This document shows positions 4,998 to 32,035 of a DNA stretch of 64,000 bases, piece by piece. Position 1 is the first letter of the stretch. Every line of letters starts with the position of its first letter. Below the pieces are notes generated by a model. The model searched no databases and was not told the DNA's origin. It saw only the letters and a list, made by a program, of their open reading frames with translations. The position numbers and the translations under genes are program-made. This DNA comes from a virus. Location of the stretch: positions 1 through 64,000 of IMG/VR virus record IMGVR_UViG_3300019487_000003. One strand, 5' to 3'.

Positions 4998-6314
4998 ATG
5001 GCAGCAAAGAAGTCTTTCAAGGCACTTCGAGAAGATCAAAACAAATTGCTCCCTACACATCCTTCCGATGCTGGGAAACAAGTTCCAGATAAGTGGGCAG
5101 ATCGTAAAGCAACTTCCGAACAAGATAAGAGCAAGTCTTTGCTCCCTACACATTCATCTGACGCAAGCGCAGAAGTTCCAGATTCACTAGAAGGAAAAGT
5201 TGGTAAAAGAGCAGTAAAGCCATCTCAAGATGGTCAAGCTATTGCTTGGGCCGCTGGTAAGCACGGAAATGCAGAAGCAGCACAACTTCCTGAATCTGAA
5301 GATAAAGAAGATTGGGATAAGGAAGAAGTCAAGGAAGAGGAAGAAAAGGACGAGGACAAGGAAGTAAAAGAACATGATGAAAAGGGTGAAGAGGAAGAAG
5401 AACTGAAGGAAGGGGATGACTGGGAAGAAGACCTTGACAAGATGGACGAAGAAGTTGAAGACGAGTTGAAGAAGGATGAAGTGAAGGAAGAAGATGAGAA
5501 GGATGAAGACAAGGAAGAAGTGAAGGAAGACGAAGATAAAGACGCTGATAAGTCTGAGGACGATGAAGACGAAGAACTTAAGGAACATCTTGCCGCTCTT
5601 ACTGCTGGTGATTTCCTTTCTGAAGATACAAAGGGTCGCGTAAAGACTATTTTTGAAACTGCTGTTCGTTCGTCTGTTCAAAAGAAACTTTCTGGAGAAA
5701 GAAAGAAGCTCCAAGAAGCGTTTTCTAAAGTGTCAAAGCGAAAGATTCGCAAGATGCACGAAAATATGGCAGAACGTATTAATTCCTACCTCGACTACAT
5801 TGTAGAAGAATGGTTGAAGGAAAACTCTGTAGCTGTAGAAGCTGGTCTTCGCACAGAACTTGCAGAAGAATTCATGTCAAAGTTGAAGAATCTTTTGGAA
5901 GATCATTTCGTTGAAGTTCCTGAAAGCAAGAAAGATTTGCTCGGAGAACAAGCAGAAAAAATCGAAGCACTTGAAAAAGAATTGAATGATGAAATCAACA
6001 AGAATGTTGATTTGTCAAAGAAGATCAATGAGGGTGAAAAAGAAGCATTAGTCACCTCTCTTTGTGAAGGGCTTACCGCACTTGAAGCAGAAAAATTCAA
6101 AAAGCTCATTGTAGCTGTAGATTTTTCTTCAAAAGAACAGTATGGTAAGAAACTTCAAATCATCAAAGAAAGCTATTTTGGAATCAAATCCAAGGCTGGT
6201 GATGTAGCTGGAGCCCTTGTTGAGGAAGGTGGAATCGAAGCTCAAAAGAGTGGACAAATTAATGATGAGATGGATCATTATGCTGTTGCGATTTCACAAA
6301 GTTTGAAAAAGTAA
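4998..6314 (+). CDS. gp22: Prohead core scaffold protein (T4 gp22-like) with a hyper-acidic central tract
   Basis: AGGAG SD; sits directly upstream of the gp23 homologue. The C-terminal half has the gp22-like 'NSYLDYIVEEWLKEN' region and coiled coil. About 110 aa of D/E/K-rich tract. Confidence 0.7.
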   Translation: MAAKKSFKALREDQNKLLPTHPSDAGKQVPDKWADRKATSEQDKSKSLLPTHSSDASAEVPDSLEGKVGKRAVKPSQDGQAIAWAAGKHGNAEAAQLPESEDKEDWDKEEVKEEEEKDEDKEVKEHDEKGEEEEELKEGDDWEEDLDKMDEEVEDELKKDEVKEEDEKDEDKEEVKEDEDKDADKSEDDEDEELKEHLAALTAGDFLSEDTKGRVKTIFETAVRSSVQKKLSGERKKLQEAFSKVSKRKIRKMHENMAERINSYLDYIVEEWLKENSVAVEAGLRTELAEEFMSKLKNLLEDHFVEVPESKKDLLGEQAEKIEALEKELNDEINKNVDLSKKINEGEKEALVTSLCEGLTALEAEKFKKLIVAVDFSSKEQYGKKLQIIKESYFGIKSKAGDVAGALVEEGGIEAQKSGQINDEMDHYAVAISQSLKK

Positions 6315-10321: not shown

Positions 10322-11765
10322 AAAGCATAACGAAGTTTATGCTGTTATTTTAGCTGATTCTGGAATTCTTAAAGAATTATCAGAATATTTCAAATTTAGA
10401 GTCCCAGGATATCAATTCATGCCTAGTTATAAGTCTAGGATGTGGGATGGTTACATTCGACTTTTCAATTCTCTGACGTGCCAATTATATCTAGGTCTTG
10501 TAAAATATCTAAAAGTTTTTGCTAAAGAAAGAGAATATGATATAGAAATAGACGATGAGATTTATGAATGTGAGCAAGAAGTAACAAAAGAAAAGATAGA
10601 TTCATTCATAGAAAATTTATCTCTCCCACATAAACTTAGAGATGCACAATATCTTGCACTTCAAGAGGCTATTACAAAGGGTCGAAATCTACTATTAAGT
10701 CCTACCGCTTCAGGAAAATCCCTAATCATTTACACTCTGATTAGATGGTTTGAAACAGAAAAAGTTTTGATAATAGTTCCAACAATTGGACTAGTAACAC
10801 AGATGATTGATGATTTTAAATCATACGGATTTAATACAAAACATTGTCATGGGATTTATGAATCTCAATCTAAAGAAACAGATAAAAGAATAGTTGTATC
10901 TACATGGCAATCAATTTACAAGCTACCCAAATCTTGGTTTAAACAATTTGGTGTTGTCATTGGTGATGAAGCACACCTTTACAAAGCTGAATCTATTAAA
11001 AAGATAATGCAAAATCTTGAAACCTGTAAATATAGATTTGGCACAACTGGAACACTTGATGGAACACAAACAAATAAACTTGTATTAGAAGGTTTATTTG
11101 GTCCTGTCTTTCAAGTTACTACAACAAAAAAATTGATGGATGAGGGTCATCTTGCAAAACTTAAAATAGATTGTTTGTTATTGAAATATGATGTTGAAGA
11201 ATGTAAGAACTTGAGAGATTCAACATACAGAGATGAAGTTAAATTTATTATAGAAAATAACAAAAGAAATTCTTTCATAACAAACTTAGCAGTTAATTTA
11301 GAGAATAACACGATGGTTCTTTTTCAGTATGTTGATAAACATGGAAAAATTCTATATGAATCTATTAAAAAGAAAGCAAAGGGAAGAAAGGTCTTCTATG
11401 TTTCTGGTGAAACAGATGCAGAATCAAGAGAACAAGTCAGAAAAATAACAGAAAAAGAAAGAGGTGTTATTATTGTTGCATCTTCTGGTGTATTCAGCAC
11501 AGGCATCAATATAAGAAACTTAGATAATATCATTTTTGTCTTCCCTAGTAAATCGAGAATCAAGACATTGCAAAGCATCGGCCGCGTTTTACGTGTAGGA
11601 GATTATTCAAATAAAGCTACATTATATGATATAGTTGATGACCTCAGTTATAAAGCATACAAGAATTTTGCACTAACACATTTTTTGGAGAGAGCTAAGA
11701 TATACAACTCCGAAAAATTCGATTACAAGATTCATAAAATCGACTTTGCTTCCAAAAAGAGCTAA
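10296..11765 (+). CDS. uvsW: UvsW-type SF2 DNA helicase
   Basis: UvsW-like N-terminal domain ('FKFRVPGYQFMPSYKSRMWDGYIRLF'), Walker A 'SPTASGKS', 'GDEAH' box, helicase C motifs. Confidence 0.88.
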   Translation: MYRELIKVKKHNEVYAVILADSGILKELSEYFKFRVPGYQFMPSYKSRMWDGYIRLFNSLTCQLYLGLVKYLKVFAKEREYDIEIDDEIYECEQEVTKEKIDSFIENLSLPHKLRDAQYLALQEAITKGRNLLLSPTASGKSLIIYTLIRWFETEKVLIIVPTIGLVTQMIDDFKSYGFNTKHCHGIYESQSKETDKRIVVSTWQSIYKLPKSWFKQFGVVIGDEAHLYKAESIKKIMQNLETCKYRFGTTGTLDGTQTNKLVLEGLFGPVFQVTTTKKLMDEGHLAKLKIDCLLLKYDVEECKNLRDSTYRDEVKFIIENNKRNSFITNLAVNLENNTMVLFQYVDKHGKILYESIKKKAKGRKVFYVSGETDAESREQVRKITEKERGVIIVASSGVFSTGINIRNLDNIIFVFPSKSRIKTLQSIGRVLRVGDYSNKATLYDIVDDLSYKAYKNFALTHFLERAKIYNSEKFDYKIHKIDFASKKS

Positions 11766-26667: not shown

Positions 26668-27120
26668 ATGAAAACAAGTTCTCAAGGAATCGATTTAATT
26701 AAACAATTCGAGGGGTGTGAACTAGATGCTTATTTGGATGCAGTTGGTGTTCCAACAATAGGTTACGGAACAACACTCATTGGAGGAAAGCCAGTCCCAA
26801 TGGGTCTATCTATTACAGAACAGCAGGCCGAAGAATATCTTGCATTTGATTTAGTGAAATTTGAAAAGGCGATTAACAATCTTGTAAAAGTAAACTTGAC
26901 ACAAGAGATGTTCGATGCTTTAGTTTGTTTCACATATAATCTTGGAGTTGGAGCTTTTGGGGGTTCCACTTTATTGAAACTTTTAAATAATGGGGAATAC
27001 GAAAAAGTTCCAGCACAATTTCTACGTTGGTCCAAGGCTAAAGGAAAAGTTCTTCCCGGTCTTGTTCGTAGAAGACGTGCCGAGGCAGAATTATTTCGTT
27101 CTGGAATAGCAAACTTGTAA
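26668..27120 (+). CDS. Endolysin, GH24 lysozyme
   Basis: 'GIDLIKQFEGCELDAYLDAVGVPTIGYGTT' carries the E-x8-D-x5-T catalytic pattern of phage GH24 lysozymes. Confidence 0.9.
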   Translation: MKTSSQGIDLIKQFEGCELDAYLDAVGVPTIGYGTTLIGGKPVPMGLSITEQQAEEYLAFDLVKFEKAINNLVKVNLTQEMFDALVCFTYNLGVGAFGGSTLLKLLNNGEYEKVPAQFLRWSKAKGKVLPGLVRRRRAEAELFRSGIANL

Positions 27121-27149
27121 TTGCTATTTTTGAATAGTTTTGTTATAAT
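27121..27149 (+). promoter_or_regulatory. Sigma70-type promoter TTGCTA-17-TGtTATAAT
   Basis: Read directly. Followed by an AAGGAG SD and the ATG at 27167. Confidence 0.6.
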
Positions 27150-27166
27150 GAGTGAAGGAGATTGTT

Positions 27167-27508
27167 ATGGGATTTAATGAAGACAAAGTTTATATCGTTC
27201 GTTTAGTTTCTGGTGAAGAACTTCTGGCATTAGTTGAAACAGTTGGTGAAGGAATAGAAAAGGTTCATAATATTGAAGCACCATTTTTTGTATCACTTAA
27301 CCCAGGACCAAGTGGTGCCCCGCAAGTTCATCTTCAACCATTTCTTTTTATGCTTGATGAAGAAGATGAGACCAAACCTCTTCAACTCCCTGATAAAATT
27401 GTTGCTTTTAAATATCGTCCAGCAAAGGACATAAGAAGTAAATATAACGAAATTTATGTTAAAGCAACCACAGGACTTATCCTCCCGTCCACGAATCTAA
27501 AAATTTGA
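27167..27508 (+). CDS. Hypothetical protein, distant paralogue of 11798..12223
   Basis: The ATG after AAGGAG is preferred over the GTG at 27152. Pattern shared with 11798. Confidence 0.5.
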   Translation: MGFNEDKVYIVRLVSGEELLALVETVGEGIEKVHNIEAPFFVSLNPGPSGAPQVHLQPFLFMLDEEDETKPLQLPDKIVAFKYRPAKDIRSKYNEIYVKATTGLILPSTNLKI

Positions 27509-27533
27509 CAACAGATTTTAATTCTGTTATCAT
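27505..27533 (+). promoter_or_regulatory. Sigma70-type promoter TTGACA-17-TGtTATCAT, 6 nt before the ATG at 27540
   Basis: Consensus -35 overlapping the upstream stop codon, extended -10, no SD. Confidence 0.65.
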
Positions 27534-27539
27534 GGTGTT

Positions 27540-28988
27540 ATGAGTCAAGAGTTTTATACTAACTGCGTAACAGTTGGAAATAGAGTTTTATACCGAGGAT
27601 ATAAAAATGGTTCTCGTGTTCATCGTTCTATAGAATACAAACCTTCACTTTTCATATCCTCAAACAAATCTAGTAAATTTAAAACCCTTGAAGGTAAATC
27701 TGTTGAGAAAATAGAATTCTCTGGTATAGAGGATGCAAGAGAGTTTCTTAAGAAATACGAGAGTATAGACAATTTCACAGTATATGGTAATACAAATTAT
27801 CATTATTGTTATTTGTCAGATACATTTACTGGACAAGTAGATTATGATCCTAATCAGGTCAAAGTAATGTTTCTTGATATTGAAACCTCATATGAAGATG
27901 GTTTTCCTAATCCTCAATCTGTTCAAGAGCCAGTTATCGCTATTACAATTAAACTTAAAGACAAATTCTATGTCTATGGCACAAAAGAGTTTAAAACAGA
28001 AGACAAAAATGTATTTTATTTTAAGTGTGATGACGAAAAAGATTTGCTATCTCGTTTCGTGCAAAAATGGCAAGAACTAGACCCTGATATTATCAGTGGT
28101 TGGAATATTGAGGAGTTTGATATACCATATCTGATCAATCGTATCTCTCGTGTCCTTTCTGAAAAGGACTCTAATTCTTTATCTCCCTGGAAAAGACTTA
28201 GAACAAGGAAGGTTAAGTTACAGGGAAGAGAATATGATAATTTTGAATTGATAGGAATTTCGACACTTGATTATCTCCAGATGTATCGAAAGTTTGTTGG
28301 CACTGCTGAAAACTATAAATTGAACACTATCGCACAAATGGAATTGGGTGAAGGAAAGGTTCAGGGTGATATGAGAGATATGTATCACAATGATCACCAA
28401 AAGTTCATAGAATATAACATTCAGGACGTTGCACTTGTTGCAAAGATAGATCAAAAGATGGGACTCATTCAGATGCTTTGTGCAATTGCTTATGATGCCA
28501 AAGTGAATATTGTTGACACTTTTGCTCAAGTAAGATTATGGGATACTATTATCTTCAATGATTTTCGTCCCAAACATCTTGTAATGCCACAGAAAGCAAA
28601 ACACGATAAGGAAACTAGATATGCAGGAGCCTTCGTAAAAGAGCCTAAAGTTGGAATGCATAAATGGGTTGCATCATTTGACTTAGATTCTCTGTATCCT
28701 CATTTGCTTGCACAATATAATATATCTCCAGAAATGTTAGTTCCAGGAGCATTTAAAACAACTGATCTTGACAAACTCTTGAAAAAGGAATATGATTTGT
28801 CCTATTTGAAAGAAAGGGGTTTAACAATGGCAGCAAACGGACATCATTTTAAAACAGATAAAGAGGGGTTTCTCCCAGCTATCTTAATGAGAATGTATCA
28901 AGATAGAAAGGTTTACAAGAATAAGATGTTAGATTCACAGAATGAACTTGAAAGGGTCGAAGCTGAATTTAAAAGACGAGGGCTATAG
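27540..28988 (+). CDS. gp43: DNA polymerase (family B, gp43) N-terminal cistron: exonuclease domain and palm motif A
   Basis: Exo I 'FLDIET', Exo II 'GWNIEEFDIPYL', Exo III 'YNIQDVALV', motif A 'SFDLDSLYPH'. Ends with TAG about 85 aa after motif A. Confidence 0.92.
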   Translation: MSQEFYTNCVTVGNRVLYRGYKNGSRVHRSIEYKPSLFISSNKSSKFKTLEGKSVEKIEFSGIEDAREFLKKYESIDNFTVYGNTNYHYCYLSDTFTGQVDYDPNQVKVMFLDIETSYEDGFPNPQSVQEPVIAITIKLKDKFYVYGTKEFKTEDKNVFYFKCDDEKDLLSRFVQKWQELDPDIISGWNIEEFDIPYLINRISRVLSEKDSNSLSPWKRLRTRKVKLQGREYDNFELIGISTLDYLQMYRKFVGTAENYKLNTIAQMELGEGKVQGDMRDMYHNDHQKFIEYNIQDVALVAKIDQKMGLIQMLCAIAYDAKVNIVDTFAQVRLWDTIIFNDFRPKHLVMPQKAKHDKETRYAGAFVKEPKVGMHKWVASFDLDSLYPHLLAQYNISPEMLVPGAFKTTDLDKLLKKEYDLSYLKERGLTMAANGHHFKTDKEGFLPAILMRMYQDRKVYKNKMLDSQNELERVEAEFKRRGL

Positions 28989-28991
28989 TGT

Positions 28992-29369
28992 ATGCCAAAA
29001 TCAAATAAAGCTAAGGAGTTTGTAAAGAAAATGGATAAGCTCCGAAATAAGAAACCCGGTGAAGTTGATTATGTTGAGGTCCTAGAAAACATTCTAATTT
29101 CTGAGGAGCCTCTTGATACTCTTGTAAGATTACCTTTTGGACAATTGATTAATGTTGGTCTGGATAAACTTTTACAGAATCTTTCTGTTTTAGCAATCGG
29201 AACAGATGACGATGGCCAATTCAAAATCGATAAGTTGGGAGTAGAACTTGCAGGAGTTGTAGATCAAGATATAGTTTTTAGAGTTACAGGAACACTTCAA
29301 AAATATAAGGTCGAGCATAAAAAATTGCCTGCGATAAAGAAATCAAAGAAGAAAAAGAAGGCCTCTTGA
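28992..29369 (+). CDS. Hypothetical protein encoded inside the split polymerase gene
   Basis: 125 aa, Lys-rich termini. Starts 3 nt after the stop of the polymerase N-cistron. No nuclease or intein motif seen. Confidence 0.55.
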   Translation: MPKSNKAKEFVKKMDKLRNKKPGEVDYVEVLENILISEEPLDTLVRLPFGQLINVGLDKLLQNLSVLAIGTDDDGQFKIDKLGVELAGVVDQDIVFRVTGTLQKYKVEHKKLPAIKKSKKKKKAS

Positions 29370-29854
29370 AAAGAACAGATTATATAAGTTGGGATCAGTA
29401 TTTCATGTCTGTTGCACTTCTTTCGGCGCAACGTAGTAAGGATCCAAGCACACAAGTTGGTGCATGTATAGTTTCTCCAAGTAAAAGAGTAGTTGGTGTT
29501 GGATACAATGGTTTCCCAAATAAATGTCCAGATGATCAATTACCTTGGGGAAAAGATTCTGAGGACGAAAACGAAACCAAATATCCCTATTGCGTTCATG
29601 CAGAACTAAATGCAATCTTAAATACAACACAAATGGGCTTGAAGAATTGCACAATTTATGTTACACTCTTCCCTTGTTCTGATTGCACTAAGGCGATCAT
29701 TCAATCTGGAATTACACACGTTATCTATTTAAATGAAATAATTAAACCAAGATACTTGCACAGTATGGAAGCATCTAAAAGAATGTTAGACCTTGCTAGT
29801 ATACCTTATTCAAAATTTGAAAAGACTGGTAGATATATCTGCCTTGAATTATGA
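29366..29854 (+). CDS. cd: dCMP deaminase
   Basis: 'WDQYFMSVALLSAQRSKDP', zinc motifs 'CVHAELNAI' and 'PCSDCTKAI'. TTG start in a TTGA overlap with the upstream stop. Confidence 0.88.
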   Translation: MKRTDYISWDQYFMSVALLSAQRSKDPSTQVGACIVSPSKRVVGVGYNGFPNKCPDDQLPWGKDSEDENETKYPYCVHAELNAILNTTQMGLKNCTIYVTLFPCSDCTKAIIQSGITHVIYLNEIIKPRYLHSMEASKRMLDLASIPYSKFEKTGRYICLEL

Positions 29855-30963
29855 TTGACCTTACAAAATTGTCAGATAAAGAATTAGTTGCATACAAGCA
29901 AAAGATTTCATTTGATGCTTCAAAATACAAGAATCTTCAGCTTGCCAAAAAAGTTCAATTAAACGCCGCCTATGGTGCTCTTGGTAATGAATACTTTCGA
30001 TTCTTTGATGTGCGTCAAGCTGAGGCAGTTACTATTTCAGGACAATTTGCCATTCGTTGGATTGAAAGAGATTTGAATTTATACCTAAACAAGGTTTTGA
30101 AGACAGAGAATGTTGATTATGTCATAGCGGCCGATACAGATTCAGTCTATTTAAATTTATCTTTTATAGTAGATGCTGGCTTTGGAGACAAGCCACAAGA
30201 GCCACAAAAGGTTGTTGATTTTCTTGATAAGTTTTCTAATCAGGGATTGCAAAAAGAAATTGAGCGTTCTTATAATGCTCTTGCAGATTACGTTAATGCA
30301 TTTTCACAAAAGATGAGAATGAAAAGAGAATCAATTGCAGATAGAGGTATTTGGACATCTAAGAAGCGTTATATAATGAATGTTTATGATGCTGAAGGTG
30401 TTAGATATACAACACCCAAACTTAAGATTATGGGAATCGAAGCAATCAAATCTTCAACTCCACAATATTGTCGAGACAAGATTAAGGAAGCAATTAAACT
30501 TATCCTGAACAAATCCGAAACAGATTTACATTCATATATCCAAGATGTAGAAAAGGAATTTAAAAATCTCCCTCCGGAAGAAGTTTCCTTTCCTCGTTCA
30601 TGTAATGGACTCATGAAATATTTTGATCATCAAAATGTTGCAAAATCTGGAACACCTATTCATGTTAGGGGTTCTTTGATATATAACAAGCTAGTAAAAG
30701 AAAAGAAACTCACTAAGAAATATCCATTGATACAAGATGGGAACAAAATCAGATTTTTATATTTGAAGGAACCCAATCCTGTCCAAAGTCATGTTCTTTC
30801 TATTGTCGATGGACTTCCTGAGGAGTTTTCACTTGAAAAGTATATCGATTATGATATACAATTCGATAAGGCATTTAAAGAGCCTCTTCGGAGCATATTG
30901 GATGCTATAGGGTGGGGAACAGAAAAGAAAAGAGATTTGTCGTCATTTTTCATTGATGGGTAA
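29851..30963 (+). CDS. gp43: DNA polymerase (family B, gp43) C-terminal cistron: motif B, motif C and thumb
   Basis: Motif B 'KKVQLNAAYGALG', motif C 'VIAADTDSVY', 'KKRY'. ATGA overlap with the cd stop codon. Confidence 0.92.
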   Translation: MIDLTKLSDKELVAYKQKISFDASKYKNLQLAKKVQLNAAYGALGNEYFRFFDVRQAEAVTISGQFAIRWIERDLNLYLNKVLKTENVDYVIAADTDSVYLNLSFIVDAGFGDKPQEPQKVVDFLDKFSNQGLQKEIERSYNALADYVNAFSQKMRMKRESIADRGIWTSKKRYIMNVYDAEGVRYTTPKLKIMGIEAIKSSTPQYCRDKIKEAIKLILNKSETDLHSYIQDVEKEFKNLPPEEVSFPRSCNGLMKYFDHQNVAKSGTPIHVRGSLIYNKLVKEKKLTKKYPLIQDGNKIRFLYLKEPNPVQSHVLSIVDGLPEEFSLEKYIDYDIQFDKAFKEPLRSILDAIGWGTEKKRDLSSFFIDG

Positions 30964-30964
30964 T

Positions 30965-32035
30965 ATGGCTAAAAAAGATAATGCATTTAAAGATATTCTT
31001 GGTTTAATTGAAAATGATTATGCGTCTGTTGTTTCAGATGGAACATACTCAGATGTTTCAGGATACATCGATACTGGATCATATACACTTAATGCGCTTC
31101 TATCGGGAAGTATTTTTAAGGGTTTGCCAAACAATAAGATTACAGCATTTGCGGGAGAACCTGCAACAGGAAAAACATATTTTGCTTTATCAATTCTTAA
31201 ACACTTTTTGAATAGTAACCCCAGTGGACTCGGAATTATTTTTGAAAGTGAAGGTGCACTTGATAAGCAGATGCTAGAACAAAGAGGATTAGATTTGAAA
31301 AGAATCTTGATTGTTCCTGTAGAAACAGTTCAACAGTTTAAAACACAAGCAATTAGAATTATCGAAAACTACTTGAAGAAGGATGAAACAGAGAAGCGTC
31401 CTATTTTTCTAATGTTAGATTCCTTGGGTATGCTTTCAACAACAAAAGAAATGGGTGATAGTGAAAGCGGTAAAGAAGTGAAAGATATGACTAGAACCCA
31501 GGAAATTAAGGCAGCATTTCGTGTTGTAACACTAAAGTTAAGTAAAGCAAAACTTCCCCTCCTGGTTACAAACCATGTTTATCAAACAATGGGAATGTTC
31601 CCAACAAAAGAGATGGCTGGTGGTGGTGGATTAAAATATGCAGCAAGTAGCATTATTGCTCTTGGTAAAAGTAAAGATAAAGATAGCGAAGGGAATTTAA
31701 CTGGTGCAATCATTAGATGCAAGAACAGCAAAGGCCGGTTGACTCGTGAGGGTGCAGAAGCAACAACTTTGCTTTCTCAGAAAGCTGGCTTAGATCGCTA
31801 TTATGGTCTTGTAGATTTGGCAGTTGAACATGGAATTTTTAAGAAGGTATCAACAAAGATAGAACTTCCAGATGGAAAGGCTGTCTTTGAAAAACACATT
31901 ACAAATAATCCTGAAAAATATTTTACAGATGAAGTTCTATCTTTGTTAGATGTTGCTGCAAATAAAGAATATTTGTATGGTATCTCAGATGCAGAAGATA
32001 CAGTTGAGGAATTGCTAAATGAGTCCGACTCCTAA
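30965..32035 (+). CDS. uvsX: RecA-family recombinase UvsX
   Basis: Walker A 'GEPATGKT', RecA/UvsX layout 'ENDYASVVSDG...TGSYTLNALLSG'. In-frame alternative starts at 30953 and 30956. Confidence 0.88.
   Translation: MAKKDNAFKDILGLIENDYASVVSDGTYSDVSGYIDTGSYTLNALLSGSIFKGLPNNKITAFAGEPATGKTYFALSILKHFLNSNPSGLGIIFESEGALDKQMLEQRGLDLKRILIVPVETVQQFKTQAIRIIENYLKKDETEKRPIFLMLDSLGMLSTTKEMGDSESGKEVKDMTRTQEIKAAFRVVTLKLSKAKLPLLVTNHVYQTMGMFPTKEMAGGGGLKYAASSIIALGKSKDKDSEGNLTGAIIRCKNSKGRLTREGAEATTLLSQKAGLDRYYGLVDLAVEHGIFKKVSTKIELPDGKAVFEKHITNNPEKYFTDEVLSLLDVAANKEYLYGISDAEDTVEELLNESDS

Follow-up and report, generated by a model that had tools for sequence, protein, structure and literature searches.

The question raised by this locus is how the replicative DNA polymerase gene of a phage comes to be carried as two cistrons with other genes between them. 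The window, by which we mean the whole 64,000-nucleotide (nt) stretch of viral DNA that was analyzed (positions 1 to 64,000 of IMG/VR virus record IMGVR_UViG_3300019487_000003), encodes a family-B polymerase of the gp43 type as an N-terminal half, 43A, and a C-terminal half, 43B. Between them lie an open reading frame (ORF) of 125 amino acids (aa) and a dCMP deaminase gene, cd, and the four cistrons form a continuous chain (Table 1). A first-pass annotation, made from the sequence alone, had taken cd and the adjoining ORF to be what split the polymerase, an event different from the split gene 43 of Aeromonas phages. We consider it very likely that the arrangement is the bicistronic 43A/43B form of the T4-type replicative polymerase, a kind that has already been described, with an old split whose gap was later filled by passenger genes.

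The two halves account for one polymerase. Palm motif A (SFDLDSLYPH) is in 43A, motif B (uninterrupted in the window) and motif C are in 43B, and the exonuclease, A, B, C and KKRY motifs are all intact across the two polypeptides. In Pfam the N-terminal half matches DNA_pol_B_exo1 (E-value, E, 3e-28) and DNA_pol_B profile positions 16-148, and the C-terminal half takes up the complementary DNA_pol_B positions 146-237. Alignment to RB69 gp43, which had been suggested as a check, was run and placed the break at the fingertip: 43A corresponds to RB69 residues 2-498 (E 3e-83) and 43B to residues 554-901 (E 1e-65). Identity by codon position follows the order second, first, third in both halves, which points to purifying selection. 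By these sequence comparisons the polymerase is genuinely split and appears to be functional.

When the halves were joined end to end and modeled as a monomer with AlphaFold2 (AF2), from an alignment of 57 sequences, the mean predicted local distance difference test score (pLDDT) was 90.3 and the predicted template-modeling score (pTM) was 0.81. The model superposes on RB69 gp43 crystal structures with template-modeling (TM) scores of 0.90-0.93 and an E of about 1e-80, and the halves are thus predicted to fold as a complete RB69-gp43-like enzyme when joined in silico. Two helices of 36 residues each (444-479 and 491-526 of the joined model) flank a low-confidence junction loop, residues 480-490. 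The model puts the cut in the tip loop of the fingers helical hairpin, with 43A giving the whole of the first helix and 43B giving the second helix and motif B. In a MAFFT alignment the break of the window lies no more than 4 columns from the annotated 43A/43B junctions of Aeromonas phage 44RR2.8t and Acinetobacter phage 133, and the split forms have about 25 extra fingertip residues relative to contiguous relatives.

This position is the one at which gp43 is known to be divided in cultured phages. PMC3061061 lists natural fingertip splits in the T4-like phages 133, 44RR, 31, 25 and 65, whose cistrons lie 2 bp to 3 kb apart. The bicistronic gp43 of Aeromonas phages 44RR2.8t, 31, 25 and 65 is credited to Petrov et al. 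2006 and 2010 in PMC3061061, PMC2988022 and PMC2677866, which bears out the split gene 43 of Aeromonas T4-like phages that the first-pass annotation had mentioned. In phage 25 the gap is filled by a seg-like endonuclease (PMC3061061, PMC2988022 and PMC2677866), and PMC2988022 reports that the gp43A and gp43B halves co-purify and are active. An engineered Pfu polymerase split at the fingertip, for which an ATGA coupled junction was used, is fully active (PMC3061061).

As in the window, the T4-type PolB of the Aeromonas phages 44RR2.8t, 31, 25 and 65 is cut at the fingertip between the fingers helices, with a separate stop and start and with conserved synteny of the replication genes. However, their gap is a short untranslated spacer or a single seg-like homing endonuclease gene, whereas that of the window consists of two genes of other kinds. 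The fingertip is shorter in the clade of the window, and polymerase identity to 44RR is low, as judged from the 30% N-half identity to the sister split phage 133. Acinetobacter phage 133 shares with the window both the fingertip split and a multigene insert, its gap of 2.9 kb having 8 annotated ORFs, including the tk.4 phosphatase. It is a precedent for metabolic and uncharacterized passengers in the gap, and the multigene insert, which the first-pass annotation had regarded as a different event, is therefore not without parallel; the cargo of phage 133, however, is unrelated and includes neither cd nor a member of the 125-aa family. The engineered Pfu enzyme likewise indicates that a family-B polymerase tolerates a fingertip break, although it is archaeal and its split is artificial. 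The split PolB of Methanothermobacter thermautotrophicus is of a different kind, being cut in the palm and encoded by genes 85 kb apart. The T4 topoisomerase genes 39/60 with mobA and the nrdA gene of Aeromonas phage Aeh1, split by mobE, are further cases in which a free-standing homing endonuclease has broken up an essential enzyme, here of replication or nucleotide metabolism, that is then put together from its separate polypeptides (PMC2988022, PMC3045599). The likeness to these runs through the relatives of the window that keep a Seg-like homing endonuclease in the gap; the window itself has none, and the enzyme is another one.

The window belongs to a 167.6-kb JGI metagenome contig with T4-like synteny, and the host genome of the split gene is that of an uncultured T4-like phage of about 168 kb. 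The gene order is gp45, gp44, gp62, regA, dUTPase, phosphoesterase, lysozyme, an ORF, 43A, the 125-aa ORF, cd, 43B, a UvsX/RecA-like gene, an ORF and a gp41-like helicase, such that a T4-like replication module (45, 44, 62, regA, uvsX and 41) surrounds the split gene 43. 43A and 43B are separate cistrons, each with its own stop and start codon, and 43B ends in a clamp-binding-type tail, LSSFF. A 3-nt spacer separates 43A from the 125-aa ORF (TAG-tgt-ATG), the TTG start of cd overlaps the TGA stop of that ORF (cTTGA), and the ATG start of 43B overlaps the TGA stop of cd (ATGA); re-reading of the ORFs and junctions found the coordinates, motifs and junctions of the first-pass annotation to be correct throughout. 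There is no terminator-like site on the + strand between the cistrons, the sole + strand match in the region (28152-28169) being inside 43A. Because of the lack of a terminator and the 3-nt, TTGA and ATGA junctions, the four cistrons are probably co-transcribed and translationally coupled. Promoter-like sites in the region, one of which is just upstream of 43A, are not more numerous than expected from shuffled sequence. The exact 125-aa protein is recorded on 7 contigs from 4 sources (JGI, NCBI, ENA and Logan), and since the arrangement is also common to relatives, an assembly artifact is excluded. Upstream, 43A is adjoined by a 118-aa ORF at 27152-27508, whose sole match is PHROG 527 (unknown function, E 7e-6). 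In the relatives examined, an ORF of about 100-115 aa, which need not be homologous to the 118-aa ORF, is likewise found directly 5' of 43A.

Table 1. Positions of the split gene 43 features in the window and of stop-containing inserts in 43B of four relative contigs
Feature	Sequence	Position	Strand	Remarks
43A, N-terminal polymerase subunit	window	27540..28988	+	482 aa; TAG stop; N-terminal domain, 3'-5' exonuclease, palm motif A, first fingers helix
125-aa orphan gene	window	28992..29369	+	ATG start; folded core at about residues 30-110, acidic to neutral; lysine-rich disordered tails
cd, dCMP deaminase (predicted)	window	29366..29854	+	162 aa; TTG start; PF00383; HAE and PCxxC zinc motifs
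43B, C-terminal polymerase subunit	window	29851..30963	+	370 aa; ATG start; second fingers helix and motif B, palm motif C, KKRY, thumb
First long fingers helix, 43A residues 444-479	window	28869..28976	+	AF2 model; ends 3 residues before the stop
Second long fingers helix, 43B residues 9-44	window	29875..29982	+	AF2 model; includes motif B KKVQLNAAYGALG
Motif B KKVQLNAAYGALG	window	29947-29985		in 43B
Motif C AADTDS	window	30127-30144		in 43B
Sigma-70-like promoter match, TTGACA-17-TATCAT with TG	window	27505..27533	+	just 5' of 43A; consensus match only
Stop-containing insert in motif B	L094	7271-7330		
Stop-containing insert in motif B	L095	6744-6800		
Stop-containing insert in motif B	L002	8449-8500		
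Stop-containing insert in motif B	L010	4645-4700		

A collection of 5.8 billion proteins was searched with each half, and the best 120 clusters per half were read. For the N half, a length of 469-503 aa, which is that of the split form, was found in each of the top 34 clusters and in about 81 of the 120. For the C half, almost all of the 120 clusters measure about 363-390 aa; one of the latter bears the NCBI name 'DNA polymerase subunit B [uncultured Caudovirales phage]'. Polymerase relatives among GenBank phage isolates are only distant, none exceeding 56% identity, and the top matches there are contiguous cyanophage polymerases. To judge by cluster lengths, the split is common in environmental T4-like phages, far more so than the few cultured examples suggest.

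Relatives with differing gap contents (their contigs are given L numbers) have in common a junction peptide pattern, ...ELERxxxExKRRGL before the break and MxDLxxLSxxEL... after it. The gap is empty, being a 4-nt spacer or an overlap, in L092/L093 and L085. It holds a small ORF of the 125-aa family alone in L002, L003, L005/L098 and L110, and the small ORF is also seen in the short contigs L007/L008 and L009, which show part of the gap; in L111 it is accompanied by a 147-aa Cys-rich ORF. L090/L091 have a weakly T5orf172-like ORF of 210 aa and a cd that shares 50% identity with the one in the window, L012 has an IMPDH/GMP-reductase gene (Pfam 2e-82), and L028 has a 90-aa ORF. A GIY-YIG endonuclease, SegE/SegH-like, occupies the gap in L010 and L094, and a GIY-YIG endonuclease is likewise found there in L100, L101, L105, L107 and L109. 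No GIY-YIG, HNH or similar endonuclease was found between the halves of the window, in agreement with the first-pass annotation. In a rough neighbor-joining tree of the N halves, contiguous and split forms are interleaved. The gap therefore has the look of a cargo site, a predicted hot spot for gene insertion. Because relatives with the identical break have no insert, a homing endonuclease gene, an IMPDH-like gene or other ORFs, the split is older than its cargo, and cd and the 125-aa gene were not its cause. The deaminase gene was probably a late addition in the lineage of the window, since the nearest relatives that bear the small ORF are without it.

The 162-aa ORF is predicted to be a dCMP deaminase of the cd/DCTD type. 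It matches PF00383 (dCMP_cyt_deam_1) with 98 bits against a cut-off of 25 (E 3e-28) and has the zinc motifs VHAELNAI and FPCSDC. Residues 2-152 align with human dCMP deaminase (DCTD, 2W4L) from residue 5 (E 3e-51), and because the alignment begins at cd residue 2, the TTG start is taken to be real. The match to T4 cd (1VQ2) is far weaker, at E 3e-14. dCMP deaminase makes dUMP for thymidylate synthesis. In many relatives with a contiguous gp43, cd lies 1-3 kb upstream of gene 43 and not inside it.

The 125-aa protein belongs to a small family. A word search gave five clusters at 90% identity, an exhaustive profile search of 1.84 billion proteins gave nine representatives, and a scan of JGI metagenomes added one further sibling contig only. 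Two of the nine were judged spurious, P0008 being a 3251-aa repeat protein and P0012 consisting of low-complexity repeats. Every member with readable context is in the 43A/43B gap, in 8 lineages including the window, and none was found outside it among 111 fetched loci. The bearers form one clade in the tree of N halves, and the amino acid identity of the small protein tracks that of the polymerase (0.59 vs 0.59; 0.50 vs 0.52). With codon-position identities of.81,.62 and.40 at the second, first and third positions, respectively, the ORF is a real gene under purifying selection. The profile search recommended in the first-pass annotation did not produce a family: there was no match in Pfam, PHROGs, NCBIfam or PADLOC, and a peptide-pattern scan of IMG/VR also gave none. 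The AF2 model of the protein has a pLDDT of 69, with a conserved core of about 75-85 aa at pLDDT 75-91 composed of beta-strands and helices. Compared with PDB and BFVD structures, it gave nothing better than E 0.04, with weak resemblances to dodecin, MscS-beta and Rpb7-like folds. Throughout the family, variable lysine-rich tails carry a net charge of +4 to +12 and the core -6 to +2, with the exception of the 84-aa outlier P0013, whose short tails have only +1. The lysine-rich tails suggest nucleic acid binding. The 210-aa ORF of L090, the homing endonucleases and the gap ORFs of phage 133 were considered as relatives and are unrelated to the family.

The history that we propose starts from an old split, now found throughout a large set of T4-like phages from the environment. 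A GIY-YIG homing endonuclease of the Seg type, such as is still present in the gap of some relatives, probably made the split or helped it to spread. The endonuclease would then have been lost and the gap colonized, as a permissive landing site, by passenger genes, which in the phage of the window are the eukaryote-like dCMP deaminase and the 125-aa basic-tailed protein. All four cistrons would be expressed together by co-transcription and translational coupling, and 43A and 43B would associate noncovalently into one enzyme, for which Aeromonas phage 25 and split Pfu are precedents. The most likely role of the 125-aa protein would be that of a nucleic-acid-binding passenger expressed with the replication genes.

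Had the insertion of cd and the 125-aa ORF made the split here, separately from the splits of Aeromonas and Acinetobacter phages, one would understand why the cargo is unlike that of any isolate phage, and neither the DNA of the window region (megablast) nor the 125-aa ORF (tblastn, E <= 10) has a match in GenBank phages. Yet the break falls in the same fingertip column as in phages 44RR and 133, the junction peptide pattern recurs in relatives with different inserts or with none, and cd is absent from the nearest small-ORF relatives L098, L002, L110 and L003, which makes such an independent origin very unlikely. It is extremely unlikely that the halves are joined into one polypeptide, whether by trans-splicing of a split intein, an intron, ribosomal bypass or read-through of the TAG. 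The 43A gene and the 125-aa ORF are in the same frame and separated only by TAG-TGT (28986-28994), read-through giving a fusion of 609 aa, and recoding seems to occur elsewhere in 43B of some relatives. However, cd and 43B are in the other two frames, the same-frame layout of 43A and the small ORF is not kept in L002 or L003, and the shared frame is probably a coincidence. TAG is an ordinary stop in the window, where 6 of the 61 long ORFs end with it, and coding coverage under the standard code is 88.6%, which disposes of TAG read-through and of an alternative genetic code there. No Hint-domain halves with a +1 nucleophile were found with Pfam, the stretches that do not align with RB69 next to the break amount to 10 and about 27 residues, far too few for split-intein halves, and 43B starts with MIDL; the first-pass annotation had likewise argued against an intein. 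A group I or II intron was rejected, as no Rfam family matches 27000-31500 at E <= 1, and the interval is filled by two ORFs under selection. Splicing, named in the first-pass annotation as something that could overturn it, found no Rfam match or intein domain in its favor, and the halves would have to assemble in trans, as the first-pass annotation had it. A decaying pseudogene or an assembly artifact has in its favor the interruption itself and nothing more. The catalytic motifs are intact, the halves are full length and under purifying selection, exact copies of the protein are on several independently assembled contigs, and the same architecture is found in dozens of diverged clusters; the first-pass view that this is a split family-B polymerase and no pseudogene holds, and the probability of decay or artifact is close to negligible.

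A further possibility concerns the 125-aa protein, which might be a clade-specific third subunit or assembly factor, docking at or near the severed fingertip or binding DNA through its lysine-rich tails. It would stabilize the association of 43A with 43B or contact DNA, and the family-B core would then consist of three polypeptides. The ORF is always between 43A and 43B in its 8 lineages, is linked to them by overlaps or short spacers, is kept while cd and the 147-aa ORF come and go, evolves under purifying selection at a rate like that of the polymerase, and encodes a protein with basic tails. Nevertheless, most split gp43 lineages are without it (L092, L085, L090, L094 and others) and presumably work, and gp43A/B of phage 25 is active without such a partner, according to PMC2988022. 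The bearers are one clade, in which vertical inheritance of a passenger explains the co-location, and neither sequence nor fold searches connected the protein with any accessory protein of a polymerase. We therefore regard a third subunit as unlikely and an old fingertip split with passenger genes as the better reading. Several points weigh against the latter. The 125-aa protein could be more than a passenger, given that its gene is confined to the gap, is tightly coupled to its neighbors and is conserved much as the polymerase is. An origin of the split through a homing endonuclease is deduced from relatives, there being no endonuclease remnant in the window, and the association of the halves and their co-expression are likewise deduced. 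No second PolB, another finding that would have counted against the first-pass annotation, was found within the 64-kb window; this covers 64 kb of a genome of about 168 kb, which might have a second polymerase elsewhere.

Some relatives of the window show an unexpected feature downstream of the gap. In 43B of at least 14 contigs (L002, L010, L094/L095 and L099-L109, the window not being among them) the invariant motif B (...NSAYGALGN...) is broken, near codons 47-50, by an in-frame insert of 6 or 9 nt with a genuine stop codon (four sites are listed in Table 1). The insert region reads CTT TAG CTC/CTA/CTT GGN in L094/L095 and L100-L105, GGT TGA GGA in L002 and L099, CTA GGC TAG CTA GGC in L106, CTT GGT TAG TTA GGA in L109, and GGA TAG TTT GGC/GGT in L010, L107 and L108. 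Every insert has synonymous codons before and after the stop, and a skip between them restores exactly YGALGN. Past the stop, about 320 codons are open to the natural ...FF C-terminus with no start codon nearby, and they are under purifying selection among lineages that are 46-78% identical (for example,.75,.65 and.41 at the second, first and third positions). On these three grounds the post-stop codons must be translated, and the occurrence of both TAG and TGA argues against a reassigned genetic code.

Seven of the insert-bearing contigs have a full-length Seg-like GIY-YIG endonuclease in the 43A/43B gap; truncated remnants of it are present in L095, L104 and L106, and none is left in L002, L099 and L108. 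Our analysis makes the inserts candidates for a natural stop-hop or mini-bypass that immunizes the endonuclease target. They resemble the cassette of mobA and gene 60 in T4, where an insert after codon 46, which the ribosome has to bypass, shields the phage genome against the endonuclease that it encodes (bioRxiv 10.1101/2022.08.31.505936). A 2016 review described natural in-frame stop-hops as not known and stated that bypasses like that of gene 60, only shorter and with matching codons for take-off and landing, had long been expected (PMC5009743). In the literature searched, no earlier report of stop inserts in polymerase motif B was found.

What the window adds to the published fingertip-split gp43 is an uncultured lineage and new cargo, namely the eukaryote-like cd and the orphan basic protein, and this is of modest value. 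In practice, 43A and 43B should be treated by annotation pipelines as a single enzyme, and split polymerases could be engineered with the natural junction peptides as a guide. Of greater value is a by-product, the Seg-type endonuclease of the relatives together with the mini-insert in motif B, whose stop must be recoded; such inserts may supply the natural stop-hops that were called not known in 2016 (PMC5009743). The orphan gap protein and especially the endonuclease-linked stop inserts are leads worth separate follow-up.

The replication genes of this phage group appear to be heavily colonized by mobile elements, and further interruptions were seen in relatives. In L002 (9472-11908) a uvsX/RecA-like gene is interrupted after the Walker A region. 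Its 95-aa N-terminal piece ends in ...GEESTGKCARGS and is followed by a 300-aa ORF and then by a 418-aa ORF, of which the first ~130 aa resemble the C-terminal part of an intein (...IIHHNT) before RecA resumes. The arrangement is possibly that of an intein with an ORF that is nested in it or splits it. L095 has a DnaB/gp41-like helicase with a faint Intein_splicing match (10616-11446). In L101, as oriented, about 725 nt that contain no long ORF (5255-5980) break into 43A upstream of its ExoIII motif, and there is no Rfam match at this locus. The contiguous-type gp43 of L011 (3150-3260) has a single in-frame TAG replacing a conserved Gln codon (FRFYDIK*AEAIT); a sequencing error could account for it, as could suppression or recoding of the stop.

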